Source: an uncultured Spirochaetota bacterium
GTDB lineage: Bacteria; Spirochaetota; Brevinematia; Brevinematales; JAOACQ01
Direction: 5' to 3'
DNA length: 64,000 bases
Assembly (NCBI GenBank): GCA_963835575.1
Contig: CAWIGG010000002.1
Coordinates: 1 to 64,000 of the forward strand
A model generated the notes under the pieces. It did no database searches and was not told the DNA's origin. It saw nothing but the letters and a program-made list of their open reading frames with translations. Shown piece after piece: positions 3,622 to 26,592 of the stretch. The position numbers were made by a program, and so were the translations under genes. Every line of letters begins with the position of its first letter. The stretch's first letter is position 1.

Positions 3622-3781
3622 GCCTAACGGTGCGGCTATACGACGTTTTGCGTCCCGTAGGGTTGGCGCGGCTTTTGCATCCCACGCAGCAAAAGACGTG
3701 ACAAAGCAAAATGTGTCCGCAGGACCGAGGAGCGCCCGGAGCCGCGCGAGGACGGAGCGGAACGTGTACGCCTTGTTGTAC
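3622..3781 (-). repeat. attC-like site (160 bp)
   Basis: GCCTAAC...GTTGTAC; very similar to 17730-17888. Confidence 0.85.
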
Positions 3782-3838
3782 GAAGTTTTCCGGGCCGAAT
3801 GTTTTACCAAAAAGCCGTAGCCAGGACGGCGGAGGCTT

Positions 3839-4129
3839 TTATCTGTTTTTTCTTTTTGGGTTCATAGGATACCATCCTTTTTCAACCCTCTTTCTCTGTT
3901 CGAAAATTTCTAATATACTCCATAAAGAGGAAAAGCCCGCCACGCTCAGGACGGCCCTAATGATATTATTAGGAATAAAAACAGAAGCTCCGCAAAGAAT
4001 TAAACCAAGACCTAATAATAAAGGCCAGATGGACACACTGAAATAGTATTCACCCCAAATTACTAATGGATGAAATAATCCGATGATTAAAAAAGCTGCT
4101 ATTCCAATTATTAATCCATCAAAAAACAT
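3839..4129 (-). CDS. Small membrane protein (DUF4491-like)
   Basis: GLIIG...IGLFHPLVI.GEYYF...KRVEKGWYP.NPKR pattern; three hydrophobic segments. Confidence 0.7.
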   Translation of the reverse strand: MFFDGLIIGIAAFLIIGLFHPLVIWGEYYFSVSIWPLLLGLGLILCGASVFIPNNIIRAVLSVAGFSSLWSILEIFEQRKRVEKGWYPMNPKRKNR

Positions 4130-4160
4130 AAAATCCTCATTTTTAATAATATTTGAATAA

Positions 4161-4195
4161 AACAACTGCGGCAGAATTACCTACCGCAGTTTGTT
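4161..4195 (-). terminator. Hairpin after katG
   Basis: AACTGCGG...CCGCAGTT stem just past the katG stop. Confidence 0.5.
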
Positions 4196-4216
4196 CTTAA
4201 TAAAATGTCCTTAATG

Positions 4217-6920
<2,704 letters not shown>

Positions 6921-6924
6921 AATG

Positions 6925-7326
6925 CTACTCCTTATCCTTTATATTTTTGCATTTTTCACAAAAACCATAAAAATTAATGGTGTGTCCGGTTATTATATTA
7001 TTTGTGTTTTCTTTTGCAATTATTTCAATATTATTTTGTAGCGGAATGTTAAAATCTTGAATAATTCCGCATTTTTCACAAACAAAATGATAATGCAAAT
7101 CGGTAATAGCATCATAATGTTCCACTCCATCACCAAATTCCCTGCATTTAACGAGCTTTTCTTCAATTAAAATCCTAATATTTCTGTAAACATTACCCAT
7201 ACTGACAGTAGGATTCTCTTTTCTTAAAACATCATAAATCCTTAATGCCGTTGGGTGATCAGAACTGCTTTTAATAATTTTTAAGATTTGATCTCTTTGC
7301 AAGCTTTTTCGTCTTTTTATCTCCAT
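6925..7326 (-). CDS. perR: Fur-family regulator, probably PerR
   Basis: HPTA, VYRN, HYHFVCEKCG and C-terminal CEKC; directly upstream of bfr-katG. Confidence 0.8.
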   Translation of the reverse strand: MEIKRRKSLQRDQILKIIKSSSDHPTALRIYDVLRKENPTVSMGNVYRNIRILIEEKLVKCREFGDGVEHYDAITDLHYHFVCEKCGIIQDFNIPLQNNIEIIAKENTNNIITGHTINFYGFCEKCKNIKDKE

Positions 7327-7335
7327 AAACTTCCT

Positions 7336-7382
7336 TATTAATAATCGTTACTAATATTAATACAATTAGTTTTTCCTGTCAA
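7336..7382 (-). promoter_or_regulatory. Sigma70 promoter with adjacent Per/Fur-type box
   Basis: Minus strand reads TTGACA-17-TAATAT, then imperfect palindrome TAGTAAC-G-ATTATTA, then RBS. Confidence 0.65.
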
Positions 7383-7455
7383 TATTATTTGAATATTTTT
7401 AGCCAGCCAAGGAAGGCTGGCGAATTTAATCACCAGCTTCGGCCCGGAAAATTTC

Positions 7456-7619
7456 GTACAACGGTACAGACAGACGACGTTTTGCGGCCCGTCAGGGTTG
7501 GCGCATTTTTTGCTTCCCCGTGCAAAAAATGTGACAAAGCAAAATGTGGCGCAGCCTGAGCACCGCAGCCCGTAGCTTCAGCGGAGGGCGAGGAGCGCAA
7601 CGTCTGTCTGTTGTTGGGC
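7456..7619 (-). repeat. attC-like site (164 bp)
   Basis: GTACAAC-GGT-ACAGACAGACG ... CGTCTGTCTGT-T-GTTGGGC. Confidence 0.85.
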
Positions 7620-7672
7620 GATGGACAGTCCGAATTTATAACAAAAGATAGGAGCCAAGGATGGCGATGATT

Positions 7673-7831
7673 TTAAATATCTTTTTTAGATACAAATTTC
7701 CATCCTTGTTTTTCTAATTCTTTTTCTTTTAATCTAAGCATATCCGCGAATTTTTTTATATCATTATCACATTCTTCAGATATTTTTTTTCCTGCTTCTC
7801 TTACTTCTTCAACAATTGGATCTGTATTCAT
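7673..7831 (-). CDS. Small 52-aa protein, probable antitoxin partner of PIN protein
   Basis: Read by hand: MNTDPIVEEVREAGKKISEECDNDIKK..., RBS GGAGG; below the ORF-track cutoff. Confidence 0.65.
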   Translation of the reverse strand: MNTDPIVEEVREAGKKISEECDNDIKKFADMLRLKEKELEKQGWKFVSKKDI

Positions 7832-7846
7832 ATTTTTCCTCCATTA

Positions 7847-8314
7847 TTATTTCAATTCTTCTGGAGTACAAATTTCAGGAGTTTTATACCCTTTTTGATT
7901 ATTCAATTTTAATAGTTGCTTTTTAAAATGTGCATTTGCCAAATGAGAACAATTCCAAGATAATAAATAATCCATTTCGTAATAAACACTATATGATACA
8001 TGATAAATATCTCTCACTATTTTTTCTGGAAAATTAAACTGTTTCATATAAAATTCAGCTATTATATCAATATTTTCGTCTTCTCTTAATACCTTCAAAT
8101 TTTTAATTTCATTTTGCCTTTTAACAGCATAATGCTTATCACCATTCGCTATTTCCTCTATTACAATAGGTGATACAAATAGTTCATATTTTTTGCGTTC
8201 AATATTCCACCAATCTTTAGTTATTATCTGCCTACTTAAAATGATTATATTTTCACTCTGTTCAGATACAAGATAGCTTGGAATTGTTGTTTCAATATAA
8301 ACCTTTTCTATCAT
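7847..8314 (-). CDS. PIN-domain (VapC-like) protein
   Basis: VYIETTIPSYL, VIEEI, DIYH, LLSWNCSHLAN, CTPEEL. Confidence 0.85.
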   Translation of the reverse strand: MIEKVYIETTIPSYLVSEQSENIIILSRQIITKDWWNIERKKYELFVSPIVIEEIANGDKHYAVKRQNEIKNLKVLREDENIDIIAEFYMKQFNFPEKIVRDIYHVSYSVYYEMDYLLSWNCSHLANAHFKKQLLKLNNQKGYKTPEICTPEELK

Positions 8315-8347
8315 TAATAAAACCCCAATACTGTTTAATTATATATT

Positions 8348-8376
8348 ATTATAATCTTTTTATTATTTTCCGGCAA
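8348..8376 (-). promoter_or_regulatory. Cassette-borne sigma70 promoter
   Basis: TTGCCG-17-TATAAT; same layout at 17656-17684 and 26431-26459. Confidence 0.7.
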
Positions 8377-8420
8377 GGATGCCGGATTATCTTTAAAAAA
8401 TAAGCTTCGGACTGTCTTTC

Positions 8421-8598
8421 GCCCAACGGTCGGCGTTTGCGAAGCCGGCGAGGCTTAGAGCTTTGCTCTTGCCGAGCCGGTTTGGTGAGCCCTGCGTTGC
8501 GCTACTTCCGGCCTACCCACGGGAGGGCGAACCCGAGCACCGCAGGCCGTAGCGACTGAGCGGAGGCCGAGGAGCGGAGCGCAAACGCCGAGTTGTAC
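8421..8598 (-). repeat. attC-like site (178 bp)
   Basis: GCCCAAC-GG-TCGGCGTTTGCG ... CGCAAACGCCGA-GTTGTAC. Confidence 0.85.
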
Positions 8599-8695
8599 GC
8601 AGTTGCACAAACTGTTTTATTATATTTCTTTCTTTTCTATAATTTCTTTGTATTTTAATTCTTCATTATCAGTTGTAATTTTAATATTTGCTTCA

Positions 8696-10091
8696 GAGTT
8701 ATAATAGAAAGTTGTGTATAGGAATAAATATTATAAAAAAGATGGCGTACCCTCTATAATTTATTTACGACAATAAACAAAAGGAGGAATACGCCATATG
8801 CCGAAGCACAACGAAGATTTTAAGCTCTTACAGGCTTTTAATCAAGATGAAACAGTAGAATTTTTATGTCTTGAAGAATTGGCAAGGATCGGGGCCAGGG
8901 AAATAATCAAGAAGGCTCTGGAAGATGAAATTAATGGGTTTCTTCAGGAGAGAGAGCATTTAACTATCGAAGACGGGAGAAAGGCAATAGTAAGAAATGG
9001 GTATCATAAAGCCCGTCAGATTCTCATTGGTGGAGGGGCTATTGATGTATGTATTCCGAGAACAAGGAACCGACTCGGAGGCGACAATTTTCAAAGCCTA
9101 ATAGTACCGCCGTATATGAGAAAAAGCCTGAGAATTGAGGAAGCCATTCCATTGTTGTATCTCTATGGAGTCTCAGAGATGGATATGGAGAATGCCTTGA
9201 GAGGATTGCTTGGTGAAGAAGCGAAAGGATTATCAGCCTCAAGTATAAGCAGAATGAAACAAGGATGGGGTAAAGAATATGATGAGTGGCGGACATCCGA
9301 TTTAAGCGATAAAAAGTATTGCTATATATGGGTTGACGGCATTTACTTCAATGTACAGGGCAGCGAAGACCGTTTATGCACTCTTGTAATGATCGGAGCC
9401 AATGAGAATGGTGAAAAGGAGATTATTCTTGTTGAAGAAGGTTACAGAGAGAATTCCGAGACTTGGTTAGGGATATTAAGAAACCTAAAAGAAAAAGGTT
9501 TGAAAGGTCCTATTCTTTTTATCGGAGACGGAAGCCTTGGATTCTGGAAAGCAGCCAAAGAAGTATATCCTGAATCCAGATGGCAGAGATGCTGGGTTCA
9601 TAAGATAAAGAACATTCTAAACAAGCTGCCCAAAGTATTACAGTCAAAGGCAAAAGAGATGCTTCATGAGATATGCAATGCTCCTGATAAGGATAATGCT
9701 ATCAAAGCTTTTGAATTATTCCAGGCGGTTTTTAATCCTAAATATCCAGCAGCTGTCGAATGTTTAGAAAAGGATTGGGAGCTTATGATCGAATTTTATA
9801 ACTGTCCGGCGGAACATTGGGTACATATCCGTACGACAAACGTAATAGAATCTACCTTCTCTACAGTTCGATTAAGAACTAAAAAGATGAGAGGCTGCGG
9901 AACCAGGGAAACGATTCTAATAATGGTCTATAAATTACTGGATAAGGCATCCAGGCGATGGAGAAAATTAAGAGGTTATGAAAAGATTTGCCTTGTATTG
10001 GAAGGCGCTGTTTTTGAGAACGGAGAGCTTGTAAAAAAGGCAGCATAAAAAAATGAGAGGGTATGTCATACACAACATTTGACAAAAACTC
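8696..10091 (+). mobile_element. IS256-family element
   Basis: IRs GAGTT...GTTGTGTAT; 9-bp TSD TTTGCTTCA at 8687-8695 and 10092-10100. Confidence 0.93.
8798..10048 (+). CDS. IS256-family transposase
   Basis: RNGY, WVDGIY, IGDGSLGFW, QRCWVHK, IRTTNVIES. Confidence 0.95.
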   Translation: MPKHNEDFKLLQAFNQDETVEFLCLEELARIGAREIIKKALEDEINGFLQEREHLTIEDGRKAIVRNGYHKARQILIGGGAIDVCIPRTRNRLGGDNFQSLIVPPYMRKSLRIEEAIPLLYLYGVSEMDMENALRGLLGEEAKGLSASSISRMKQGWGKEYDEWRTSDLSDKKYCYIWVDGIYFNVQGSEDRLCTLVMIGANENGEKEIILVEEGYRENSETWLGILRNLKEKGLKGPILFIGDGSLGFWKAAKEVYPESRWQRCWVHKIKNILNKLPKVLQSKAKEMLHEICNAPDKDNAIKAFELFQAVFNPKYPAAVECLEKDWELMIEFYNCPAEHWVHIRTTNVIESTFSTVRLRTKKMRGCGTRETILIMVYKLLDKASRRWRKLRGYEKICLVLEGAVFENGELVKKAA

Positions 10092-10724
10092 TTTGCTTCA
10101 ATTAAGTTTTCATTAACTATATTACCAATTAAATTAAATTGGAATAGTGATTCCTTTTTATAAATATTTATTTTTTTGTCTGTTATTAATATTTCATCAG
10201 AGTAATATTTTGTGTAATGAAGTTTATTTGAATTTATATCGATTATAAATGAAGATCTGTTACTAAGCATTGAATCTTTATTTGTTATTTTTGAAAGATC
10301 ATCTGAGATGTTTAAAAGTATAGAGTTACCTTTCCAGCCTATTCTTTTTACTTTGTTGGCTTCATTTGAAATTCTATCATCTATTTGTTTTTTCTCAACT
10401 CTTTTTAAGAATTTATTAAGTAAAATAGAACAACTTATGATAGCGATAACAATGCTGGCAAGTGATACAAGAATATTTATCAGATTAGACTTAAAATATT
10501 CAATTTCTACAAATTGTCTAATTATTAAAAAAATAATGAACTGTGATATAAAAACTGATAAAAAATAAGTTAATAAGAATTTTAATGCCCAACTCCACCC
10601 TTTCATGTTATTCTCTTTTGCTTTGTTGTAAAACCAAATAGAAATAACAGCTAATGCTACTACTACAATAATAATTCCCATAATTACCTCTTAAATTTAT
10701 TACAAAAATTGTTTGTGCAATTGC

Positions 10725-10899
10725 GTACAACGGTGCGGGCAAGCGACGTTTGCGAGCCTTAGAACTGCTCAGCAGTTCTAGGCGAGCAAATGTGGTGAGC
10801 CCTGCGTATTCTTCTGCGGCCTACCCCACGCAGGGCGAATCCTGAGCACCGCAGGCCGTCGCAACGGCCGAGGAGCGGAACGTTTGCCCGCTGTTGGGC
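10725..10899 (-). repeat. attC-like site (175 bp)
   Basis: GTACAAC-GGT-GCGGGCAAGCG ... CGTTTGCCCGC-T-GTTGGGC. Confidence 0.85.
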
Positions 10900-10922
10900 G
10901 ATGAAGCACCGCCAATTTAGTT

Positions 10923-11099: not shown

Positions 11100-11281
11100 T
11101 GGAAAATCCGGACGAAACATGCCGGGGTTCCGGGTGAAACATGCCACCCAATCCGTGTGAAACATGCCGGGTAATCCGGATGAAATGTTACCACCTACCA
11201 TAAGAAAAAGCGAATCAAACACGAAGAATTCCTCCGAGAATGTTAAGCTAATCCTTCTTGAAAAAATAAGAAGGAGTTGGT

Positions 11282-12838
11282 ATGCCGAACAGGAGGAAGC
11301 CTATGAAGAAAATCCGGGAAGTGATCCGGATGATCAAAGAAAACGGCCTGAGCTGCCGTGTGACATCAAAGGCCCTGGATATTTCCAGGCCAACCGTGCA
11401 AAGATATATATCCAGGTTTGAAAAAAGCGGCCTAACCATCGCGGAAATTTATGAAATGAGCGATTCTGCTTTAATTGAAATTTTCGAATCGATGGCAGAA
11501 GGTGACAGTCAGGAAGAAACCGAAAAGGATAATCTGTACAATGAATTCCCCGAATACAGTAAGGAACTACTGCGTACAGGCGTCAATCTGAGATTGCTTT
11601 GGGAAGAATACCTGAGAAAATATCCAGGAGGCTATCGCTATTCTCAATTCTGCTATCACTACGGCATCTGGAAAGGTTCTCTTGAAATATCCATGCACCA
11701 GGAATACAAGGCCGGAGACAAGCTTTTTGTTGATTTTACCGGCGCGAAATTTCCGATTGTAGACCGTTCCACAGGAGAAGTTATAGAGAAAGAGGTATTC
11801 GTAGCCATTCTTGGAGCAAGCCAGTATACATATGTGGAAGCGACGGATAGCCAGAAGAAAGAAGACTTAATCAGGGCTATCGAGAACGCGTTGTATTACT
11901 TCGGAGGATCACCAAGAGCCATAATACCCGATTGTTTAAAAAGCGCTGTAACGTTGGGCAATAAATATGAACCTGCAATTAATTCTGAATTTCAGAATTT
12001 TTGCAGACATTATTCTATGTGTCCCCTCCCTGCAAGACCATATAAACCGCGAGATAAAGCACACGTTGAAAACGCCGTAAAAATCACCTACAGCTGGATA
12101 TTTGCCGTTCTCAGGAATAGAGTTTTTTATACTCTGGGAGAATTGAATATTGCTATACGGGAACAATTGGGAATCTATAATTCAAAGAAGATGCAGAAGC
12201 TCAAAGTCAGCAGGCGGGAATTTTTCGAGGAAACAGAACGGAAAGAGTTAAAACCGCTTCCGAAGGAAAGATACAGTTTTAAAAGCTTCTCAAAAGCTAA
12301 GATCCAATTCAACTATCATGTCTGTCTCAAAGAAGATTCTCATTACTACAGCGTTCCATATCGATATAGAGGCAAAATGGCAGATATTGTTACTTCCGAT
12401 CGGACAGTGGAAATATTTGTTGATAATATCCGCATTGCAGCCTATCCACGGGACCGTAGAAAGCAAGTTTATACAACCACACATGAACATATGCCGCCCC
12501 ATCACAGGTGGGTCGGAGACTGGAATCCGGAGAAGTTAACACATTGGGGTAAGTCGCTTGGTCCGGATGTTGAAGAAATGATAAAGAGAGTCCTGCAAAG
12601 CAGGGATTATCCAGAACAGGCATATAAGGTCTGTCTGGGCATCTTAAGCCTGGCCAAAAAACTCGGAAAAGAAAGGCTCGATAAAGCCTGTAAACGGGCG
12701 CTTGATTTTCAGTATTATTCATATCAGGGAATAAAGCGGATTCTGGAGAAAGGCCTGGATAATTTTGAGGAAGAATCGGTACTGTTTCCGGCCGTTAAGA
12801 TGCATGAAAATATCCGCGGAAGAGAATATTTTGAATAG
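11282..12838 (+). CDS. istA: IS21 transposase IstA
   Basis: LFVDFTG, IIPDCLKSAV, PRDKAHVE, YYSVPY. Confidence 0.93.
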   Translation: MPNRRKPMKKIREVIRMIKENGLSCRVTSKALDISRPTVQRYISRFEKSGLTIAEIYEMSDSALIEIFESMAEGDSQEETEKDNLYNEFPEYSKELLRTGVNLRLLWEEYLRKYPGGYRYSQFCYHYGIWKGSLEISMHQEYKAGDKLFVDFTGAKFPIVDRSTGEVIEKEVFVAILGASQYTYVEATDSQKKEDLIRAIENALYYFGGSPRAIIPDCLKSAVTLGNKYEPAINSEFQNFCRHYSMCPLPARPYKPRDKAHVENAVKITYSWIFAVLRNRVFYTLGELNIAIREQLGIYNSKKMQKLKVSRREFFEETERKELKPLPKERYSFKSFSKAKIQFNYHVCLKEDSHYYSVPYRYRGKMADIVTSDRTVEIFVDNIRIAAYPRDRRKQVYTTTHEHMPPHHRWVGDWNPEKLTHWGKSLGPDVEEMIKRVLQSRDYPEQAYKVCLGILSLAKKLGKERLDKACKRALDFQYYSYQGIKRILEKGLDNFEEESVLFPAVKMHENIRGREYFE

Positions 12839-12850
12839 GAGGAACTGAAT

Positions 12851-13594
12851 ATGACCAATGAAGCAACTATTGAAAAAATGCAGAAGATGAAACTGCATGG
12901 GATGTCCAGGGCGTTTGAGGATATCATTGCCGGTAAAACGCCTGACGGCCTGACTGCCGATGAAACAATTGCGCATCTTGTGGATTCGGAATGGGACGAA
13001 AGGTATAATCGGAAACTGTCATCTTTAATCAAAAGAGGGCGTTTCAGATATCAGGCTGGTCTGGAGAATCTTTCTTACCGTGCGGATAGAGAACTGGATA
13101 AAAATCTGATATTGAGGCTTTCGAATTGTGATTGGATACGAAAGAAAGAAAATATGATTATTACAGGCGCTACCGGCAGCGGGAAAAGCTATCTTGCATC
13201 AGCTTTCGGTAATCAGGCTTGCCGGCAGGGCTACAGGACCCTTTATTTCAACTGTTTGAAGATTTTTACCCGGTTAAAATTCGCAAAAGCGGAAGGTAGT
13301 TACTCAAAAGAAATGAATTTTATCCAGAAGCAGGATTTATTGATACTGGATGATTTTGGTCTTGAAATTCTTGATACACCCTCAAGATTGTCTCTTCTGG
13401 AAATGCTTGAGGACCGGCATGGTAAAAACTCTACTTTGATAACTTCTCAGCTGCCGGTAAAAGATTGGTTTGAAAAAATCGGTGATCCTACGATAGCTGA
13501 CGCAATCTGTGACAGGATAAATCATTCTGCTATTAAAATCGAATTGAAGGGGGTTGATTCTATGCGTAAAATTTATGCTAAAGATTCTGGATGA
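12851..13594 (+). CDS. istB: IS21 helper ATPase IstB
   Basis: GATGSGKS, LLILDDFG, TSQLP, ADAICDR. Confidence 0.95.
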   Translation: MTNEATIEKMQKMKLHGMSRAFEDIIAGKTPDGLTADETIAHLVDSEWDERYNRKLSSLIKRGRFRYQAGLENLSYRADRELDKNLILRLSNCDWIRKKENMIITGATGSGKSYLASAFGNQACRQGYRTLYFNCLKIFTRLKFAKAEGSYSKEMNFIQKQDLLILDDFGLEILDTPSRLSLLEMLEDRHGKNSTLITSQLPVKDWFEKIGDPTIADAICDRINHSAIKIELKGVDSMRKIYAKDSG

Positions 13595-13691
13595 AACATG
13601 CCACCTGCCTTAAAATGTTTTGGGAATTTTAGTGTTTTGAAAAGTGGTAACATTTCGCCCGGAACCCCGGCACATTTCACCGGAATACGCA

Positions 13692-14560
13692 AAACTGTTG
13701 TTATCTGAAATAACGGAAGAATATAATATATATAAAGGAGGACAATCATCATAAAGTTTTAACCAATTATTAAATAATTGTTTAATATTTTGTTCAATAG
13801 AATAAAAATAAACAAAATAAAAAGTTTCAAATTTATAATAAGAACTGGATTCATTTTGTTTATTTCTATTATGAAGAAATACAATTTCATGCGGATATTT
13901 TTCATTATTTATAAAACCTGATAAAATATTTCTATTAATTTCTTTCCTTATAAAAAACTGAAAAAAAATTGAAGTCATATTAATGTACGAATCAAGTTGA
14001 TTTAATGTAATTCCTTCTTTTGCTTTAAAAACTATAAATGCTTTTTCTGTAATTTTAAATTCATAATACATCTGGATAATTAAGGGATAATACAATTTAA
14101 AAAGAATAAATATATGCATTTTAACATTATCTAAAATATCAATATTCTGTCTTTTATTATATTTTATTGTTATGTCAGTTTCATTTTCATCTTGGCTAAA
14201 TTTATTATTTTGTAATGTTAACCAATGATATAAATTATCACTTCTTATATATAATTCATTAAATAGGATATTTTCATCTTCAAGATGAGCGCCTAAATAA
14301 CCTTGATAACATTGATAAGTAACTGTTTCATATCCACTGTTTGAAAAAGTATTTTTAATTCTATAGCAATTGAATAAAGTAATTTTATCCCCATTATTTA
14401 AAAGACCATGTATTATTTTGAAATTAAAATCTTTGATAAAAGGTTGAAATCTGCCATTTAAATGAAGATTTAGGTTATCTGAAACTTCTAACTCTCCAGA
14501 AATTGTATTTTCAATGTTTTCAATAATCCACCACTTACCTAAATAAATTTCTTCTTCCAA
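13692..14560 (-). pseudogene. ApeA-N-terminal-domain-like protein truncated by IS21 (HEPN part missing)
   Basis: GKWW...ISGEL...IIHG...G.KITLFNC N-terminal pattern; frame runs into the IS end. Confidence 0.55.
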
Positions 14561-17655: not shown

Positions 17656-17684
17656 ATTATACACCCCACGCCGTTTTCCGGCAA
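17656..17684 (-). promoter_or_regulatory. Cassette-borne sigma70 promoter
   Basis: TTGCCG-17-TATAAT upstream of the R-M gene. Confidence 0.7.
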
Positions 17685-17729
17685 GGATGCCGGAAAAATT
17701 TAATTACCAGCTTCGGCCCGGAAAATTTC

Positions 17730-17888
17730 GTACAACGGTGCGGCTATACGACGTTTTGCGGCCCGTAGGGTTGGCGTCTTTTTTGCATCCCACGCGCAAA
17801 AAAGATGACAAAGCAAAATGTGGGCGAAGCCCTGAGCACCGCCCGGAGCCGCGCGAGGACGGAGCGGAACGTATAGCCGTTGTTGTGC
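17730..17888 (-). repeat. attC-like site (159 bp)
   Basis: GTACAAC-GGT-GCGGCTATACG ... CGTATAGCCGT-T-GTTGTGC. Confidence 0.85.
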
Positions 17889-17952
17889 GAAGTTTTCCGG
17901 GTCGAATGTCGTACCAGAAAGCCGTAGCCACGATGGCGAAGGCTTTCCGTCG

Positions 17953-18504
17953 TTATTTCCCATAAACTATAGAAATTATAAAAGACACTATTAATACAAG
18001 ATAAGCTATAAAAAATATTTGAAAATTAAATTTTATCTTGAATAATAGCGAGTATTTTTTATTCATTTTATCTAAGTTTTCTTTGATAATATATTTGTAA
18101 TCAGCGACAATCGTATCAACAGCTTGAGCCTTTTTATTCTCAAGGTATAAATCAATAGCTTCATAATCATATTCTGTCAATGTAATTGGTTCAAGACCGT
18201 TTAATATTTCTTTAAAAAGTAATATAAAAGATATTCCTATCATTAGAGTACAAATAGAAATAAATGAAGATAATATTATATGTATGGTTAATACGTCAGG
18301 ACTCAATTTATCAAAGATGAAAACGTGTTTAATATTATTAATTTGTTCCTTAAAAATTAGTATTAATGTCGATAATAATATTGAAATAATTGTCAGATAA
18401 AAACTTATTTTTTGATTAAAACTCTGGTATCTATCCAAAATTCCATCATTTTTATATTTTAAATAACTTATCGGGTCAAATTTTATTTCTTTATTTTTTG
18501 CCAT
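17953..18504 (-). CDS. 3-TM membrane protein, topology reminiscent of Pycsar/DUF5706-type effectors
   Basis: Helix, two TM segments, soluble loop, N...KK helix, C-terminal TM; start overlaps the ligase stop. Confidence 0.6.
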   Translation of the reverse strand: MAKNKEIKFDPISYLKYKNDGILDRYQSFNQKISFYLTIISILLSTLILIFKEQINNIKHVFIFDKLSPDVLTIHIILSSFISICTLMIGISFILLFKEILNGLEPITLTEYDYEAIDLYLENKKAQAVDTIVADYKYIIKENLDKMNKKYSLLFKIKFNFQIFFIAYLVLIVSFIISIVYGK

Positions 18505-19426
18505 AAAAAAATTCCCCTATACTTTTACTGATATTGAGATTTAAAATTTCATCAATCCAAGCCCATTGACCATTAGGATTCAAGTCTAAAAAATAATAAT
18601 CACCTGTTTTGCTATAAATAAGATCCATTGAAGAAAAATTTAAGTTAAATTGTTCGACTATTTTCTTACACCTGACTTTTATTTCTTCTGGAAGTTCTAT
18701 TAAAGAATAAGGCACTGACAAACAATTATTTACCCGCCAATCTTCCTGAGTGTCTATATTGTTCTGAGAATCTATTTTAATTGCAAATAAGTCATTACCG
18801 ACTACAATTATTCTTAGCTCATATTCTTTTTCAATATATTCTTGTATCAATGCAGGGAAATTATTTACTAAAGTCAAATCATCGCTTTTCTCTAATTTAC
18901 TATTGTATGGTATAAAATTATTTCCGTTTATTTCGTGAACACCCAAATATAGTGGTTTTATACAATATGGTTTATCATTCTGGATGAAACTGACCAGTTC
19001 ATTATGGCTATTAGTAATGATGGTATCCGGCACATTGAAGCCAATTGTTTTAGCGGTTTTTAATTGTAGAATTTTATCTTCAGCTATCCTTGTATTGTTC
19101 GGGTGACTCATCCATTTAACATTTAGATTATTAATACTATATTCATAAAATAGTCTGGCTTCAATTGCTAATTCATCACTTAATGTTTGATTGTTTTCTA
19201 TATTTACTTTGGGATTAACAGGTCTTCGATATAAAATACCGGATAATTCATTGTTATTAATTCGGCACTGGTTTACTTTATTCTTAATAGTGAAATTATC
19301 TAAAGTATATTTTATTTCATAATCAGTTATAAAATTATCAGTATCGAAACGAAAAGATGGAACATTTAACCGGGAATTAAGATAATCAACTGTTTTATCT
19401 TCGGAATTAGTAATTATTAAAATCAT
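18491..19426 (-). CDS. ATP-grasp RiPP maturase (MvdC/MvdD/RimK-like)
   Basis: YRRP, AEDKILQL..A..IGF.VPDT.ITN, IKPL, QEYIEKEYELRI, DWR, LDLNPNGQWAW. Confidence 0.9.
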   Translation of the reverse strand: MILIITNSEDKTVDYLNSRLNVPSFRFDTDNFITDYEIKYTLDNFTIKNKVNQCRINNNELSGILYRRPVNPKVNIENNQTLSDELAIEARLFYEYSINNLNVKWMSHPNNTRIAEDKILQLKTAKTIGFNVPDTIITNSHNELVSFIQNDKPYCIKPLYLGVHEINGNNFIPYNSKLEKSDDLTLVNNFPALIQEYIEKEYELRIIVVGNDLFAIKIDSQNNIDTQEDWRVNNCLSVPYSLIELPEEIKVRCKKIVEQFNLNFSSMDLIYSKTGDYYFLDLNPNGQWAWIDEILNLNISKSIGEFFYGKK

Positions 19427-19707
19427 ATATTATCGCTATCGGTTTCTTCAATTCTTGTTTTAGTTATTGTTTGAGTGCCAAGATTGCTTAAATTATATAA
19501 TGCTGAAGGGTCTCTATCTGTTACTTCTGATTTAACATCAGTACATGTTTGAGTCCCTAAATTATTATTATGAGAATCATGAATTACTCGGTCTTTGTCA
19601 GTAGTTTCAGATTTAACTTCTGTAAAAGTTTGAGTGCCAAGAAAAATTTTATTACTCTGCCGAATCATTTTTGATTTTCTTAAAACTAAAATATCATTTA
19701 CTTTCAT
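19423..19707 (-). CDS. Tri-core graspetide (omega-ester peptide) precursor, 94 aa
   Basis: RBS GGAGGT; three LGTQTxTxxxxExTDxD repeats; ATGA overlap with the ligase. Confidence 0.85.
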   Translation of the reverse strand: MKVNDILVLRKSKMIRQSNKIFLGTQTFTEVKSETTDKDRVIHDSHNNNLGTQTCTDVKSEVTDRDPSALYNLSNLGTQTITKTRIEETDSDNI

Positions 19708-19753
19708 AAGTTTACCTCCCATTATAAAAAACATTTTACAAGCATCCACTTCC

Positions 19754-19956
19754 TCTCTCAAAGTTCCGGCTCCGACTCTAAAAGAATCCAATTACTCTCT
19801 TTTAGACCCGGTTTGGATTCTCAAAGAGTCTAATTACTCTCTCAAAGAGTCCAATTGGTTTCTAAAAGACCCGGCTTCGACTCTAAAAGAGTCTAATTGC
19901 TCTCTCAAAGAATCTAATTTGTTTCTTTAAGAATCGGACTGGTTTCTAAAAGAATC
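19754..19956. repeat. Degenerate 21-bp tandem repeat, about 10 units
   Basis: Units such as TCTCTCAAAGAGTCCAATTGG and ACTCTAAAAGAGTCTAATTGC at 21-bp period. Confidence 0.85.
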
Positions 19957-19974
19957 AAAAAGCCATTTCGGATA

Positions 19975-20007
19975 AAAATAAACAGGGGGAACCGCTAAGG
20001 CTCCCCC
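19975..20007 (-). terminator. Rho-independent terminator
   Basis: GGGGGAGCC-ttagc-GGTTCCCCC followed by T-rich tail on the minus strand. Confidence 0.75.
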
Positions 20008-20018
20008 ATCCATAACAT

Positions 20019-20513
20019 TTACTTCGCTTGTGTTGCTGCCGCATTTGCGGGTGTTCCTTTTGGTCTGCCGGGAAAACGGGCGGAAAGATCGTCATAAACA
20101 TTCTTTGCCCCTGAAATATTCGACTTTGCGGCACTTTTGGCGGCGTTATAAAGAATCAATGCGCCTGCGTAAGCTTCGCTTCCTGAAAGCAGCATTGTGT
20201 CGTTCAATGCGTCCGTAATCTGAGAAAGCGGCTGAAAAATAGAACGGATGGAAACCACTGCGTTAACATCGGTTTTAAATGCGTCCACATCAAGAAACGG
20301 CGGAACGATGTCAGCGTTAGATTTACAGTACTCCAACGCCTTCTGTACAAAGGGAACCGTTTTGTCGCCCATTTTGGGCATTTCATGCCGTTCATCGGCG
20401 GAAAGGGTTTTGAGGTTAGGCAAAAGTTTAGCTTTCAGAGTCGCAATTGCTGCCGTTACCTCGGCCATGTCACTTTCGGGTAGCTGGAATGAAACGAGAT
20501 TCTGTTGAGCCAT
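20019..20513 (-). CDS. Conserved-looking helical hypothetical protein (164 aa), in frame with the end of the KAP ORF
   Basis: Own RBS AAAGGAGG-ATG; GC-richer codon usage; KMGDK..FVQKA, DTMLLSGSEAY motifs. Confidence 0.7.
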   Translation of the reverse strand: MAQQNLVSFQLPESDMAEVTAAIATLKAKLLPNLKTLSADERHEMPKMGDKTVPFVQKALEYCKSNADIVPPFLDVDAFKTDVNAVVSIRSIFQPLSQITDALNDTMLLSGSEAYAGALILYNAAKSAAKSNISGAKNVYDDLSARFPGRPKGTPANAAATQAK

Positions 20514-23500
20514 TTTTTCCTCCTTTATAATTGGTGTCATTTTAACCTCCGTTATTACTAAGTTATTTTCTAAATTTATTGTAACTGGTTTATATTTTTT
20601 TAAGTTATCAATTATCTGCTCTAATGTTATCTCTTTTTTATTTAAACTCTTTATCAAATCAGAAGGAATGACTTCAGTATAATTTTGTTTTCTTATTTCA
20701 TCCTCAAAGAGAAGTTTATGTATTTTGTTAAATTTAAGATAAATATTATCTATTAGGCGATAATATTCATCAAAAGAGCTGATTAATTGTTTGTGTTTTA
20801 AATTATAAACTGCATCAATTGATATAATTAAAAGATCGGTAAAATTTTGAGGGTATGTTTTATAATTTTCAGGAATTTCACTATAAATATTCACAAAATA
20901 TTCATAAGCACTATTCAAAGATTCAAAAAGATTTGTTTCATCAATACAATGTTCCACATCCTTTTTAAAATATCCATTTAAAAGCCTACATAAACTTAAA
21001 ATTACATCATGAGATAGGCGGAGGTAGCTACCTTGATATTCATTCCATGTACTGTATGTAAAAGAAAATTTATTGTTTAATATAAAATTAAGACAATAAT
21101 TTATTTTTTCTTGTTCTAATTTTCTTTTTTCATCATTTATTGTTATACCTATTAATTCATATAAAAATAAAAGTAAAATTGATTTTATTTCTCGATTTTC
21201 AGTTTCTTCAAAATATTTTATTGTAAGACTAATTACTTCGTCAATTTGAACTTTAGTAAATTTACTATCATAATAAAAAATCATTTTTATAATCTCATTT
21301 ACTTTATGTGAATCAGACTTATAATATTTCGGGTCAACCTGATAAACAGGGAATATTTCCTTAATGAAACTAGAATTGATATATATCGAAGCCCAATCAG
21401 TAGAATAAAAGGACCTTGGTTGCCAGAGAAGTTTGCTCATAAAATCATCTGAGTCTCTATCAAATTTAATCTTACCTTCTGAGATATAATGAAGAGTCCC
21501 AAGTATCACTTTTTTTATTAAATCAAAATCCTTAAAATCATGCTCATTGCCTCCAACAATAGTATTATAAATCTTTTCAAAATAATTCATAATCAACACT
21601 TTATGTTCACGAGAACCGGGTAAACTATTGAATAGAACGATTTTTAATTTAAATAAGCTCATTGTTGCGTCTATACAATCTGTTTCTTGCAATTCTTTTA
21701 TTTTATTGATATGTTCATTAATCATTTTGTTACTAAACTCATATTTACGCAATATGGGATTAATATAATAAAGAATAGAATTTTTATTAAGAATGGAAAG
21801 ATCATCAATGACAAGACGTTTATCTTTAATACCTACTTTATCATTTGGAACTAATTCAAAACCGATTAACTCAAATATTTTGAATATCCGGTTAGATTTT
21901 GCATTTTTTAACATAAATATTTCATTATCTCTGGGTTTTAATAACAAATCTTTTAGATATTTAATAATTTCATTTTTTGTTCCCGCATATTCAGCATTAT
22001 CTAACGGATGATCCAATTCTTTTTTCATATGGTATAAAAAGTCGAAGTAAAACTCAACATTAATATTTTTCAAAGCACTCATCAAGAAAATATCTCTAGG
22101 AATTATTAAATCTATGATATGTGCGTTTTCTGTCAATTTCGTCATTTTCAGGATAGTTTGAAAGAAATCATTGAAAGTGAGTTTAACTTCTCTATATGAA
22201 TGAAATAAATCATATAATTCTCCATTGTCGATAAGAGAATCAAGCATCTTTATGATTTCTTCTTTGTCTTTATCGGCAATTTCAAACATCGTATTTTTAT
22301 TATTCAAATATTCTTTGATTCTGTTCCATTCTTCTTTTAAAAATTTTACTATTTCGTTTTGATTACCTTCTGTATTGATTTCAATTACTGTATTAAATAT
22401 TTTATAAATAAATGAAGAATCCGCTTCATTCATTACAGAGGATATGACTTTATTTACGATGTTGACATCCATTCCGGAAATGGAAACCACATTTTGGAAT
22501 CCAGTAATATACCGGATTGTTTTCAATAACGAAATACATTCTTGACTATCAATGACTCTATCAATATCATCAAATATGACAACAAGTTTTTTTTTATTTT
22601 GGTGCCTTAAGGCTATGAAAATTAATTCATTTATAGATTCTCGATCTATTTCAATGTTATTTTTTTTAATAAAAATATTAAACGATTTAGAAATGTCTTT
22701 AATCAATGTATTATCAGTGGCATTTACCAGCCATTCGAAATAATTATAAAAATCATCGGGAATAGTAATTATTGATTTCTTTAAAAAATTCAAAATACCC
22801 ATTTCTAGTTCTTTAATTATCTTTGTATGATCTTTTAACTTCCAAGCATTAATCCATAATACCTCATATTCATTTTTGTTTTTCAGCCTTTTACCCAATG
22901 TGTTTAATATGCTCGTTTTCCCAGAACCCCATTTCCCGTTTAGTAAAACGGAAAAATAATTTCGGTTTTTGTCTATTAGTGAAATAGTAGTTTCAAGTTG
23001 TTTAACATAAAAAAATTCAGAACTTTCTTCTGTAATTTCTTCTAATGGTTCATCATCAAATAGAAATGTATGATCATTATTTTTTTTCTTTGAAAGCGAT
23101 TTGATAGTTAAAAATATAAAATTTATTGTTAAACAAATAACCAAGATTAATTCTGGCATTGTCGAATATTGTTTATAATTATTATGCAAATAGTTTATAG
23201 GAAGTATAAAAGAATTTACTATAATAAATAACAACACAATATTAACGAATATCTGCATGAATTTTTTATGTACAAAGAATGTTTGTATAATTTTTCCGAT
23301 TTGGTTCCATTGTCTGTTAAACAGATTGTTTAAAAGAATCGATAAGATGCCGAATTGAACAAATATAAATGCGAAGTAAATGATTTCTTTAAAAGAGTGG
23401 TATTTACCAATGGCATTTAATAAGTCAGAGGGAATAAAAGATTTTTCAATATCATAAATACTGATTAATATATTTCTAATTCCTAATATATCAACAGAGA

Positions 23501-23585
23501 TAAATGATAATATTGTTAACAATAATAACAGCAAGAACAAAACGATGTCAAAAAGAATGGGCATTGTTTTTTTAAAACAAATCAA
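20019..23585 (-). CDS. KAP-family P-loop NTPase with N-terminal TM helices (read-through fusion at C-terminus)
   Basis: GKWGSGKTS Walker A, INAW, VVIFDDIDR Walker B. Confidence 0.8.
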   Translation of the reverse strand: MICFKKTMPILFDIVLFLLLLLLTILSFISVDILGIRNILISIYDIEKSFIPSDLLNAIGKYHSFKEIIYFAFIFVQFGILSILLNNLFNRQWNQIGKIIQTFFVHKKFMQIFVNIVLLFIIVNSFILPINYLHNNYKQYSTMPELILVICLTINFIFLTIKSLSKKKNNDHTFLFDDEPLEEITEESSEFFYVKQLETTISLIDKNRNYFSVLLNGKWGSGKTSILNTLGKRLKNKNEYEVLWINAWKLKDHTKIIKELEMGILNFLKKSIITIPDDFYNYFEWLVNATDNTLIKDISKSFNIFIKKNNIEIDRESINELIFIALRHQNKKKLVVIFDDIDRVIDSQECISLLKTIRYITGFQNVVSISGMDVNIVNKVISSVMNEADSSFIYKIFNTVIEINTEGNQNEIVKFLKEEWNRIKEYLNNKNTMFEIADKDKEEIIKMLDSLIDNGELYDLFHSYREVKLTFNDFFQTILKMTKLTENAHIIDLIIPRDIFLMSALKNINVEFYFDFLYHMKKELDHPLDNAEYAGTKNEIIKYLKDLLLKPRDNEIFMLKNAKSNRIFKIFELIGFELVPNDKVGIKDKRLVIDDLSILNKNSILYYINPILRKYEFSNKMINEHINKIKELQETDCIDATMSLFKLKIVLFNSLPGSREHKVLIMNYFEKIYNTIVGGNEHDFKDFDLIKKVILGTLHYISEGKIKFDRDSDDFMSKLLWQPRSFYSTDWASIYINSSFIKEIFPVYQVDPKYYKSDSHKVNEIIKMIFYYDSKFTKVQIDEVISLTIKYFEETENREIKSILLLFLYELIGITINDEKRKLEQEKINYCLNFILNNKFSFTYSTWNEYQGSYLRLSHDVILSLCRLLNGYFKKDVEHCIDETNLFESLNSAYEYFVNIYSEIPENYKTYPQNFTDLLIISIDAVYNLKHKQLISSFDEYYRLIDNIYLKFNKIHKLLFEDEIRKQNYTEVIPSDLIKSLNKKEITLEQIIDNLKKYKPVTINLENNLVITEVKMTPIIKEEKMAQQNLVSFQLPESDMAEVTAAIATLKAKLLPNLKTLSADERHEMPKMGDKTVPFVQKALEYCKSNADIVPPFLDVDAFKTDVNAVVSIRSIFQPLSQITDALNDTMLLSGSEAYAGALILYNAAKSAAKSNISGAKNVYDDLSARFPGRPKGTPANAAATQAK

Positions 23586-26401
23586 ACCTTTGCCTCCACC
23601 ATGTTAATTTCTTCCTCTGTCAGTCCATATAACTCATAAACCAGTTTATCAATCTTTCTATCCAGAATTTCAATTTGCTGGTTTGATAATGCTATATCCT
23701 GTTCGGTTTTGGCGGCTTGAAGACCTTTTTTTGCGGTTATTATTTTATCAGTCAATTCGATCAATTTATCTTGACTTTGAATAGTATTTTCAAGAACAGG
23801 GAAAGGTAATGCTAAAACATCCTTGATAGTTACCTGGGGAAAATCATCTTTAGTGGCTTGTGTAACTTGTTTTAGATATAAAAATGATAAAAGTTTGCTG
23901 TTTAAAATAGCCAATAATACTTTAATATCCAATTTTGATTCACTTTTTAATATAACAGAGTATAAATTCTTATTAGTAATGAAAGACTCCATTACAATCA
24001 TGGACATTAGCCTTTGCTGGCGGTTAACAAGTCTACGCAATAATATTCTATTTGAAGTAAACCAGAAAATTTCTTTTGGTCTTTCTTTCATTTTATCATT
24101 AAATTCAACCCATTGATCTGCTTTTATATTAATTGCATATCTATAAACATCACCTTCAAAATATTTGTAAGAAATATCCGAAAGCTTTGTTTGGGTTAAT
24201 AATGTTTTGCTAAATAAAACACCTCTTTTTATTAATGTGATATCATTTAAAGTAAATTGGGTATTTCGTTTTATTGATTCAATAAGATTATTAGCACCAG
24301 ACTCGAAAATAAATTTTAAATCATTATTATTGCGCCAAACATTTTGATTAATCTTATTGTAATCTAATAATTCAATTTCTTTTATCTTTGATTTTTTTGG
24401 ATATTCAAATGTTCTTACATAATTAACTGATTGAAATATTTTGTTTCTAACTTTGAAAATTAGCGTATCAATATATGCATCAGAAAAGACATTAAAAGGA
24501 AGTAAAATTAAAACATCTATTTCATAATTTAATAGAAAATCTCTCAATTCTTTATATTTTGGGCCACCTGTCCATGCAGAGGGAACAATAAAAGAAATTA
24601 ATCCTTTTTGTTTTAACAAGCTAAAACTATTCTGGATAAAACTAATATAGACATCTTTTATTTTAGAAAATATTGAATATTTCTTAGATAAATATTTGTC
24701 CTCACTTTCTTTAAACCAAGCACCATACGGTGGGTTACCAATTAAACAATCAAAGCCACCACTTTTTATTATTTCCGAAAATTGCTTTTCCCAATCAAAA
24801 GCATTTATAGACCTTATTGTTTCTTTATCAAAAAGGTTATTTTCATTTTCAAAAAAGTCGCTTCCGATCAGAGAATTACCGCACTTAATATTATTAGAAA
24901 GGTTTGGAAGATATTTTAAATCGCTATGTTTAAAAAGTAAACCTGCGCTTTCAGTGCTTTCATTTTCCATCAGTTTCAGAAGTAATGACAATTTTGTTAC
25001 TTCAACAGCCTGCGGGTCTATATCCACACCGTAAATATTATTGAGAAGGATTTTTTGCTTTTCCTGAATGGTAAGATGGTAATGCTTTTCGTTCAATTGG
25101 TAAATACGCCCTTCTTTCAGGGCTTTTTTCAACTGCTTTTCTTCAATATAGAAACTCAAATGATAATTTAAAAGATAAGTATAAGCTCCAATTAGAAATG
25201 AACCGGAACCACAAGCGGGATCGAGAACTTTTATTTTTTCTATTTCAGATGGTAATAACCCTTTTATTTTTTCACCGACAGTATTTTCAACTATATAATT
25301 AACTATATATCGGGGTGTATAAAAAACACCACCAGCTTTCTGTACTTCCGGCTTTTTCTCTATTCTTACTTGATGGGTTGGAGTTAACCGGATAGTTTCA
25401 CCAAGAAATTGTTCATAAATATTGCCAAGAACTTCAATCGGCAAAACGGAAAATTCATAAGGACAATCGGGATAATACATTTCTGTAATAATTGTTTTTA
25501 AAATATTGTCATCAATATTTAGATTGATTAAGAAATCATCTATCTTAAAAAGGTCGCTGTTATATTTATCATTGCCTTTAATAAAAAGCTTGTTTAGTTC
25601 CTGATAAGCATTTTTTCTATGAACCGCTTCAAATAAAAGGGCGTATTCTTCTGTCCCTCTATCTTCAGCAATCCGCAGGAATATAATTCTGTCCATAATC
25701 TTCTGAACTGCATAATTAAGCTGGTAAACATCGTCAAGGTTTAAATTTCTGATTGATATATTATTAGCAAGAGTTTGACGCCACTCGGATATGAGTTTTA
25801 AAAATTCCTTATCTACTTCGGAAGAACCTTTTTTGCTCTTATTGTCTTCAATGTAACGGTCAAAGCTGCCTTTGAGTATGGCGTTTTTTGAAAATGTATT
25901 AGTGATAAATTCAAAATGTTTTTCATAATCTTCAAAAGTGCAATAGAATATTCTGGCTACACTTGCTTTATCTGTTTTGTCGGGTTTAATGCGTGTGTCA
26001 TAAACGGCGATTTCTTCAAAATCAGTCAAAATGGATAATGGTAACTTTGCTGTGTAAGCATAACGTCTGATTTGATAAGCCGGGTCAATGTCCTCTTTAA
26101 TGTTGACGGAAGGTTTTTTAGCTTCAACGAAAAATTTACGGGTTCCGCCAATCCTGAAAGAATAATCAGGGGCTTTTGGTTTTCCTTGAATAACAACTTT
26201 ATCTTCTCTTACTACTTCCCGGTAATCTTCTGAATATTCTTGGGTATTGCGTACATCCCAATCAAGAAGCTCGAAGAATTTATCAATAAAATCAACTCTA
26301 GTATTCGCTTCATCGTAAGAAAGGCTTTTATATTGTTTGATATTCGTTTTAAAATGTTCTACTAATTGCTTTAATTTCATAAGTTTTTCATTCATTTCCA
26401 T
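23582..26401 (-). CDS. Type IIG-like fused restriction-modification enzyme
   Basis: APDY...VEAKKP, VLDPACGSGSFL, IGNPPY, TaqI-C-like TRD. Confidence 0.9.
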   Translation of the reverse strand: MEMNEKLMKLKQLVEHFKTNIKQYKSLSYDEANTRVDFIDKFFELLDWDVRNTQEYSEDYREVVREDKVVIQGKPKAPDYSFRIGGTRKFFVEAKKPSVNIKEDIDPAYQIRRYAYTAKLPLSILTDFEEIAVYDTRIKPDKTDKASVARIFYCTFEDYEKHFEFITNTFSKNAILKGSFDRYIEDNKSKKGSSEVDKEFLKLISEWRQTLANNISIRNLNLDDVYQLNYAVQKIMDRIIFLRIAEDRGTEEYALLFEAVHRKNAYQELNKLFIKGNDKYNSDLFKIDDFLINLNIDDNILKTIITEMYYPDCPYEFSVLPIEVLGNIYEQFLGETIRLTPTHQVRIEKKPEVQKAGGVFYTPRYIVNYIVENTVGEKIKGLLPSEIEKIKVLDPACGSGSFLIGAYTYLLNYHLSFYIEEKQLKKALKEGRIYQLNEKHYHLTIQEKQKILLNNIYGVDIDPQAVEVTKLSLLLKLMENESTESAGLLFKHSDLKYLPNLSNNIKCGNSLIGSDFFENENNLFDKETIRSINAFDWEKQFSEIIKSGGFDCLIGNPPYGAWFKESEDKYLSKKYSIFSKIKDVYISFIQNSFSLLKQKGLISFIVPSAWTGGPKYKELRDFLLNYEIDVLILLPFNVFSDAYIDTLIFKVRNKIFQSVNYVRTFEYPKKSKIKEIELLDYNKINQNVWRNNNDLKFIFESGANNLIESIKRNTQFTLNDITLIKRGVLFSKTLLTQTKLSDISYKYFEGDVYRYAINIKADQWVEFNDKMKERPKEIFWFTSNRILLRRLVNRQQRLMSMIVMESFITNKNLYSVILKSESKLDIKVLLAILNSKLLSFLYLKQVTQATKDDFPQVTIKDVLALPFPVLENTIQSQDKLIELTDKIITAKKGLQAAKTEQDIALSNQQIEILDRKIDKLVYELYGLTEEEINMVEAKV

Positions 26402-26430
26402 CGTCGTATCCTTTGTTTATTTAAAAAGAG

Positions 26431-26459
26431 ATTATACACCTTACGCCGTTTTCCGGCAA
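26431..26459 (-). promoter_or_regulatory. Cassette-borne sigma70 promoter
   Basis: TTGCCG-17-TATAAT; leader nearly identical to 17656-17736. Confidence 0.7.
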
Positions 26460-26504
26460 GGATGCCGGAAAAATTTAAGAACCAGCTTCGGCCCGGAAAA
26501 TTTC

Positions 26505-26592
26505 GTACAACGTGGGGTGTAAACGACGTTTTGCGGTTGCGACCGAAGGGAGCAATTGGCGCAGTTTTTGCTTTCCTGGCAAAAACTGTGAC
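26505..26592 (-). repeat. Left part of split attC-like site (attL side)
   Basis: GTACAAC-GTG-GGGTGTAAACG arm pairs with CGTTTACACCG at about 41491-41501. Confidence 0.85.

Follow-up and report, generated by a model that had tools for sequence, protein, structure and literature searches.

The window analysed here is a 64,000-nt stretch of DNA from an uncultured Spirochaetota bacterium of the order Brevinematales (GenBank contig CAWIGG010000002.1, positions 1 to 64,000), and forms the start of contig C2 of a 4.39 Mb genome (G000). Its first 47 kb contain a gene cassette array on the minus strand, located behind a co-oriented tyrosine recombinase gene (46684-47745). The array has nine intact attC sites and a split one, and one more site near position 600 was interrupted by an insertion sequence (IS). 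Two of the cassettes are very large, one with perR, bfr, katG and a DUF4491 gene and the other with restriction-modification (R-M), KAP and graspetide-type genes (Table 1); these cargo names, given in a preliminary description of the window, were backed by Pfam, NCBIfam and PADLOC. The ends of both cassettes, referred to below as the shell head and the shell tail, are nearly constant, and the DNA in between, the cargo, is unrelated. G000 as a whole carries, in addition to other arrays, four intI-like genes and many attC sites that stand alone.

The cassettes have the features of integron cassettes: the attC sites have R'' and R' boxes, their bottom strand folds, GTT stands at the head with the complementary R'' box at the cassette's own tail, and the cassettes lie within an array. 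The best PDB match of the array recombinase was 2a3v (VchIntIA), and its score against the NCBIfam integron-integrase model was 213.7 bits, below the cut-off of 265. In the 2a3v alignment, the insertion specific to IntI, an additional domain near patch III, was represented by 28 residues between aligned blocks as compared with 70 in 2a3v. The recombinase thus lacks the domain of canonical integron integrases, and the system is integron-like in its working.

Shell ends and their reuse

As shown by a genome pattern search, a 31-nt head sequence occurs without mismatch at positions 7462, 17736 and 26511 and with one mismatch at 42125, and the inner tail occurs at 3811 and 17918, all as listed in the preliminary description. 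Beyond the window, two extra heads were located at C2:2028910 and C2:249319 and a third inner tail at C2:2031145, together with a weak look-alike with seven mismatches at C2:1615361. When up to six mismatches were allowed over the genome, the only matches besides heads were the three shell tails, the tail being the inverted repeat of the head.

The shell consists of a 63-nt head (R' box, GC-rich inverted-repeat extension and hairpin) and a 65-nt tail (hairpin, extension and R'' box), and its terminal inverted repeat is 25 bp long. Every cassette with both ends intact has a GC-rich head/tail inverted repeat of its own, of about 18-22 bp. The special feature, described earlier as a shared terminal repeat, is the reuse of one such repeat and not the possession of one. 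Head conservation runs to the end of the hairpin (about nt 62-66) and diverges beyond it, except that the R-M heads are alike up to the ribosome-binding site; two of them are 92% identical over 96 nt, with proteins only 38% identical. The right hairpin arm of the R-M heads gives a -35-like TTGCCG located 17 nt from TATAAT. Tail conservation extends over about 65 nt, starting at the last stop codon or shortly after it, and the tail hairpin of the katG cassette scores as a terminator. The -35 element and the end terminator of the R-M cassettes, which had been assigned to the cargo, belong to the shell. In these AT-rich regions, scanning for promoters gives counts close to chance.

The loop of the head hairpin is kept and its stem varies, with 93.5% of cells paired and six of eight pairs changed on both sides. 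Covariation was 0.49 as compared with 0.17 in shuffled and at most 0.13 in slid controls, and relatedness of the sequences may inflate this value. Among 50 unique cassettes with matched ends, the loop motif was present at both ends in nine, at neither end in 39 and at one end in two (Fisher p=4e-8, kin not being independent), and both single-ended cases were IS-cut cassettes. This count omitted the 2.3-kb shell cassette as a duplicate with the same end sequences (nine becomes ten if it is included) and left out seven heads without a matching tail. The motif lies 45-48 nt from the head end and 47-55 nt from the tail end. It marks a class of cassettes wider than the shell family.

The hairpins may be loading signals. 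An enzyme would recognise the conserved loops when the DNA is single-stranded, cut just inside them and join new DNA, so that tail, attC and head together would act as an operon cloning vector. This role, which we consider rather unlikely, is suggested by the nearly constant pairing of the hairpins, their fixed distance from the R box, the stem covariation around a kept loop and the presence of a hairpin near the head in all six large multi-gene cassettes examined.

Between positions 17665 and 17950, shell tail, attC and shell head are naturally adjacent and mimic an excised circle. The bottom strand of this region folds into a hairpin, a long stem and a second hairpin at -88.3 kcal/mol (z -10.5), and the top strand folds at -74.1 kcal/mol. 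With the outer stem fully extended, the attC site at 17730-17888 reaches -66 kcal/mol, as compared with -45 and -52 kcal/mol at sites with unmatched neighbours. The attC bodies of the two large cassettes, described earlier as near-identical, are similar (86% identity), but the body at 42118, which closes a non-shell cassette, is equally close (83-88% identical to them), and the attC body is not specific to the shell. attC bodies common to unrelated genes are normal in chromosomal integrons (PMC8352920; this and the other papers cited are quoted from the parts of their text that were available).

Twelve shell heads were found, in three spirochaete genomes and two metagenome contigs. A pattern search of 401 genomes of the phylum matched eight, of which three were counted as real and five had three-mismatch matches only; a reversed control pattern gave no match in the 401 genomes. 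With an exact degenerate pattern, two more genomes in the genome collection and two metagenome contigs were matched. No viral contig was matched, a plasmid search gave no match, and a phage search gave only two 28-nt chance matches. The cargos behind the 12 heads fall into nine classes without mutual tblastx similarity in their first 1.2 kb, two cargos being shortened by contig ends. Type IIG R-M genes follow four of the heads. The other cargos are perR-bfr-katG-DUF4491, a four-gene unit starting with DUF3842, the gene of the 623-bp cassette, an HNH/zinc-finger gene, a two-ORF (open reading frame) unit, DUF4297-HerA, a CsoR/RcnR-type repressor followed by a second gene, and an unknown gene. 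The reuse of the shell over unrelated cargo, first proposed from the window, was thus also seen when related genomes were searched.

Among 56 heads compared, all pairs with at least 17 of 22 matches in the cassette-specific stretch were pairs of shell heads, and 16 of 22 was reached by five other pairs, two of them with homologous cargo. Shell heads account for six of the 26 heads in G000. Both shell ends are intact in seven distinct cassettes of 623, 909, 1,519, 2,300, 3,135, 3,688 and 8,630 bp, among which single-gene cargo also occurs (623 bp and 1.5 kb). All cargo genes are co-oriented with their cassette. Ten of the 12 heads follow an attC site, one follows an attI-side junction (in genome G270, directly behind the recombinase-side junction) and one follows neither. 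Two heads lie outside any array, as expected from integration at attG sites, and in G006 one shell cassette is duplicated in two arrays.

Table 1. Features of the cassette array in the 64,000-nt window
Feature	Position	Strand	Basis or remark
attC of katG cassette, 146-nt body	3622..3781	-	covariance model, alignment
3,688-bp shell cassette perR-bfr-katG-DUF4491	3775..7462	-	matched head/tail repeat; no internal attC
Shell tail: terminator-like hairpin, inverted-repeat extension, R'' box	3775..3841	-	tail comparison
DUF4491 gene; stop codon overlaps shell-tail start	3839..4165	-	Pfam
Terminator-like hairpin after katG	4164..4191	-	sequence scan
Catalase-peroxidase katG	4217..6418	-	NCBIfam; 79-85% identical to attC-free copies in four relatives
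Bacterioferritin	6450..6920	-	Pfam, NCBIfam
FUR-family (PerR-like) regulator	6925..7326	-	Pfam, NCBIfam
Native perR promoter-like site, TTGACA-17 nt-TAATAT	7354..7382	-	conserved at attC-free loci of relatives
Shell head: R' box, inverted-repeat extension, hairpin ~7403-7422	7400..7462	-	head comparison
815-bp cassette, other end family, same paired hairpins	7613..8427	-	matched ends and hairpin comparison
IS21-type element at junction of two mismatched cassette halves	11100..13692	+	no flanking duplication; putative family from domains
Shell head before second type IIG R-M gene (14643-17624) and truncated ApeA-domain gene	17656..17736	-	matching tail lost
attC between two shell ends	17730..17888	-	fold with fully extended outer stem
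8,630-bp shell cassette, six co-oriented genes	17882..26511	-	matched ends; no internal attC
Shell tail of 8.6-kb cassette	17882..17946	-	tail comparison
Graspetide-type triad: putative precursor 19423-19707, ATP-grasp (MvdD-type) 18491-19426, 183-aa gene 17953-18504	17953..19707	-	Pfam, NCBIfam
21-nt tandem repeats	19734..19964	.	repeat scan; G166 homolog of 164-aa gene also then repeat-like sequence (by eye)
Internal terminator-like hairpin	19985..20007	-	sequence scan
164-aa gene, family unassigned, own ribosome-binding site, 48% GC	20019..20513	-	separate gene despite in-frame KAP run-on
KAP-family NTPase, in frame with next gene	20514..23585	-	Pfam
Type IIG R-M gene	23582..26401	-	Pfam, PADLOC
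Shell head with hairpin 26449-26472; right arm = -35-like TTGCCG, 17 nt from TATAAT	26431..26511	-	head comparison
Half of split attC preceding 8.6-kb cassette	26504..26602	-	split by integrase island
Other half of split attC; 14-bp direct repeat in common with 26589-26602	41432..41509	-	covariance model
623-bp one-gene cassette, shell terminal repeat, without hairpins	41503..42125	-	end comparison
First cassette, ORF-less, 395 bp	46194..46588	-	5' end = putative attI junction
Array recombinase, IntI-like	46684..47745	-	Pfam Phage_integrase and SAM_4; transcribed toward cassettes

Cargo of the shell cassettes

In the related genomes G003 and G009, perR precedes katG, and G003 retains the first ~70 bases of bfr in between, which indicates that perR-bfr-katG is an ancestral chromosomal operon. 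The DUF4491 gene of G003 is located on a different contig. Similarity to the G003 and G009 loci starts about 10 nt past the head hairpin and covers TTGACA and the following AT-rich stretch. The cargo therefore extends upstream of the predicted transcription start, into DNA that is similar to attC-free loci of related genomes. The scan count for the promoter site equals chance (6 vs 6.6), and its support comes from conservation. The retained -35 box, together with an operon order as at the attC-free loci, argues that this cargo was probably captured at the DNA level, the route favoured in the preliminary description. Alternatively, a reverse transcriptase could have copied cargo from RNA, as read-through transcripts, between the shell ends. 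The sense orientation of all cargo, tails that begin at or near the last stop codon and the seven reverse-transcriptase matches in G000 accord with such copying, but the -35 box kept upstream of the predicted start, the internal terminator-like hairpins and the 8.6-kb length with several modules make it improbable.

The cargo of a second shell cassette in G000 matches an attC-free operon of G008, with 68% identity over 1.3 kb including a 190-bp intergenic region. We take this operon to be of the cbiMQO type. The last two genes of the cargo gave no match in the same search. The conserved intergenic region (L026:2430-2610), upstream of the metal-transport-type operon, is possibly a regulatory RNA, and a Rfam search of this cassette and of the 270-bp repeat described below gave nothing at gathering level.

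The 8.6-kb cargo has a different composition. Homologs of its R-M gene occur also at attC-free sites, the 164-aa gene has a homolog in one of 200 other genomes, and the ATP-grasp gene has one in one of 150 genomes, within a like-sized triad. In G138, three ORFs are like the graspetide-type triad in size and order, with homology tested for ATP-grasp only. GC content within the cargo ranges from 22 to 48%. Judged from this distribution, the cargo is a mosaic, its modules occurring apart from each other elsewhere, and not one captured operon. The earlier claim that whole operons are captured thus fits the katG cargo, which matches attC-free loci from upstream of its start, and is not supported for the mosaic and for single-gene cargos. 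One recurring module is a small gene with 21-nt tandem repeats behind it (window 19734-20513; L118), and 21-nt repeats also accompany an unrelated small gene immediately upstream of the array recombinase of L033 (L033:1345-2049). A 1,207-aa homolog of the type IIG R-M protein, encoded at G000 C5:408849-412472, contains a Y1 transposase-domain match.

Decayed internal attC sites, named in the preliminary description as the observation that would speak against large cargo units, were not detected in the 3.7- or 8.6-kb unit. An unfiltered covariance model gave no site below E=1, the halves of the split site scoring E 0.002-0.003, and a profile hidden Markov model (nhmmer) gave none at E<=10; both were built from local attC types, which a foreign, fully decayed site could escape. 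A generic attC scan recovered none of eight positive controls and was uninformative. Several genes in the large units overlap or abut, head and tail match in both, and the operon order is kept at attC-free loci. The two large units did not arise by fusion of cassettes whose attC sites then decayed. Cassette fusion as such is a familiar process (PMC8876359) and is present in G000, where mismatched heads and tails were found in the 17736 unit and in one cassette on contig C6, but as the origin of the large units, through internal attC loss, it is largely refuted and has only a very slight chance. As for a miniature inverted-repeat transposable element or similar transposon, terminal inverted repeats (25 bp) are present, though general to cassettes here. 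Eleven of the 12 heads follow an attC site or the attI-side junction, no target duplication was seen by eye, and no transposase match was obtained in the nine cargo classes, two cargos being cut by contig ends. Y1 transposase matches occur elsewhere in G000, G006 and G270, and no link to the shell was found.

Special loading may be dispensable altogether. An old cassette lineage with useful end signals could have been remodelled by accidents, such as IS- or intron-mediated deletions between adjacent cassettes and growth downstream of R-M genes, with its ends kept by selection. Two fusions are visible, the 17736 unit, whose matching tail was lost at the IS21-type element, and the C6 cassette, with an intron in a hybrid hairpin. 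Varied genes after R-M homologs, TTGCCG with TATAAT 17 nt on in the R-M heads and the precedent of qacE101 with its 101-bp head (PMC8876359) point the same way. However, accidents give mismatched ends, yet in seven cassettes unrelated cargo is still enclosed by shell ends that match; operons of the chromosomal type are not parts of cassettes, and the boundaries are sharp and alike across genomes. We consider this history unlikely, though not negligible.

The group II intron and neighbouring elements

A 2,025-bp group II intron is present in G000 in four near-identical copies (C2:94364-96388, C4:452775-454799, C5:88364-90388 and C6:409283-411307). All four are located exactly after the hairpin-loop motif, to which a 6-nt candidate exon-binding site 1 (EBS1) is complementary. 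Three copies lie within a dispersed 270-bp repeat. The fourth lies in the C6 cassette with mismatched outer ends, the left half of the hairpin standing at the tail position and the right half at the head position, which indicates that cargo was exchanged at the motif at least once.

Such introns might build the cassettes, as a variant of the IIC-attC model summarised in PMC7923331: copies in hairpin loops and at chromosomal sites would recombine, and intron loss would leave cargo in the shell. The constant insertion site, the complementary EBS1 and the fusion centred on an intron speak for it, and here too the intron targets a cassette-associated hairpin. The target, however, is the loop of a flanking hairpin outside attC in all four copies, on the sense strand in the cassette case, and not the attC bottom strand. 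Three of the four copies belong to the 270-bp repeat, the G006 ortholog (69%) has a different target though G006 has shell cassettes, G270 has no PF00078 match, and no motif scar was found between cargo genes. Both hairpin arms are common to unrelated cargos, which places the junctions outside the loop. The intron does not explain the shell, and we hold cassette building by introns to be improbable.

The dispersed repeat has terminal inverted repeats and 22 intron-free copies in G000 (e.g. C2:247690-247960). Its hairpin modules are those of cassette heads and tails, and the copy at C4:208470 interrupts an attC site.

A 14.8-kb island (26603-41431) with a 14-bp direct repeat splits the attC site preceding the 8.6-kb cassette. 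It carries a tyrosine integrase with an Arm-DNA-bind_5 domain, a type IIG R-M gene, SIR2-HerA and a Panacea-domain gene. The integrase was considered as an attC specialist and rejected as such, as attC was found at none of five homologous integrase loci. An IS481-type element lies about 17-19 bp inside cassette heads in five places (window 2290-3610, C2:1248084, C2:2040396, C6:415767 and C6:168857), and IS1182-type elements lie directly at the attC R'' box (window 42270-44000 and 1-600, and in G006 arrays); these family names are our assumption from Pfam domains. The first cassette of the array has a second copy at C2:2028355, and a 428-bp ORF-less cassette has at least seven copies over three arrays (G000 C2:2031347-2031774, with copies on C6 and C7). 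Some attC sites, up to about 270 bp long, have a 60-75-bp AT-rich insert mid-site (L021, L022 and L025 in G006 arrays; G000 C6:411878-412098). At L129 (G017:C24, reverse coordinates 4625-11264), a chromosomal site is occupied by a cassette of 6,640 bp with three genes, an R-M homolog and, by eye, two SIR2-HerA-like genes; this cassette has the hairpin motif and belongs to an end family of its own. A Rfam scan of the window gave two tRNAs and nothing else.

Origin of the shell cassettes

We propose, with a probability of roughly 0.55, that these are very large cassettes of a non-canonical spirochaete integron whose two ends form a reusable shell, which is mobilised by way of attC and takes up new cargo as DNA. 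In the excised circle the head would pair with the tail, lengthening the attC stem by about 25 bp beyond the R box, and the array recombinase would insert the circle at attI or at secondary sites. With a -35 element from the head hairpin and a terminator from the tail hairpin, foreign DNA would become functional in the shell. Cargo would enter as DNA through repeated exchange with junctions just inside both hairpins, sometimes as a one-piece chromosomal operon (perR-bfr-katG) and sometimes assembled from modules (the 8.6-kb cassette). The likeliest route to such junctions may be recombination of shell-bearing cassettes with chromosomal DNA after secondary-site integration.

Several observations weigh against this proposal. 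The uniform cassette-sense orientation of the cargo is not predicted by random DNA capture. Heads outside G000 were located by searching with this head, which inflates the apparent reuse. In G270 the shell closes with a different, 78-nt attC body of the host type (34-36% identity), and tail and attC have therefore not always travelled together; at L036 a shell head follows another attC type, presumably Bacteroidetes-like, and the two cases indicate that the shell is not confined to one attC family. Large cassettes with different ends exist as well (G007, 4.7 kb; G017, 6.6 kb), and each of them has a hairpin near its head. Neither an empty shell nor a solitary tail-attC-head module in the chromosome was found, the solo module being looked for among the 29 isolated or partial attC sites listed. 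No donor is closer than 85% identity, which places the junctions only to about 10-30 nt.

Among known systems, the sedentary chromosomal integrons of the Treponema type, with intI directed toward the array (PMC3607928), have R''/R' boxes, a bottom-strand hairpin, a co-oriented recombinase, a tandem array and common attC bodies as found here. They differ from the present array in its 18-25-bp terminal repeats, the conserved flanks outside attC and the recombinase without the IntI insertion. Size also differs, 8.6 kb and six genes as compared with about 2 kb (PMC4889954) and three genes (PMC3607928), both being older statements. In the qacE101 pseudo-cassette (PMC8876359) a promoter-bearing 5' segment is likewise reused before unrelated genes, but it is a 5' end only, with single cassette-derived resistance genes, whereas both ends and chromosomal-type operons are involved here. 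Insertion at attG and imprecise excision (SALINs; bioRxiv 10.1101/2022.09.11.507474) likewise involve cassettes scattered over the chromosome, as in G000, and offer the integrase a DNA-level route for the removal of neighbouring DNA. By our reasoning, one such excision would replace the head by chromosomal sequence and leave two conserved ends unexplained. Anti-phage integron cassettes (bioRxiv 10.1101/2024.07.02.601686) carry the same kinds of defence cargo (type IIG R-M, DUF4297-HerA and KAP) in small systems of at most two components, in contrast to the full-length genes of about 1,000 aa plus further genes found here. In the literature searched, mostly without subscription papers or supplements, we found no reused two-ended shell and no such hairpins. 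A look-up by sequence gave no look-alike either.

The recurring 3-9 kb spirochaete cassettes exceed the 4-kb clustering default of IntegronFinder, and surveys may therefore undercount operon-sized and defence cassettes. The origin of new integron cassettes is still listed as unknown (PMC4889954, PMC5371416, PMC12901181). The same ends on many cargos, two of which were traced to attC-free chromosomal loci with non-coding DNA, argue against a purely mRNA-based origin of these cassettes. The shell ends are a rare clue to the making of new mobile gene cassettes, and the hairpins, if they do act as loading signals, would be a trace, visible in sequence, of how cassettes arise.

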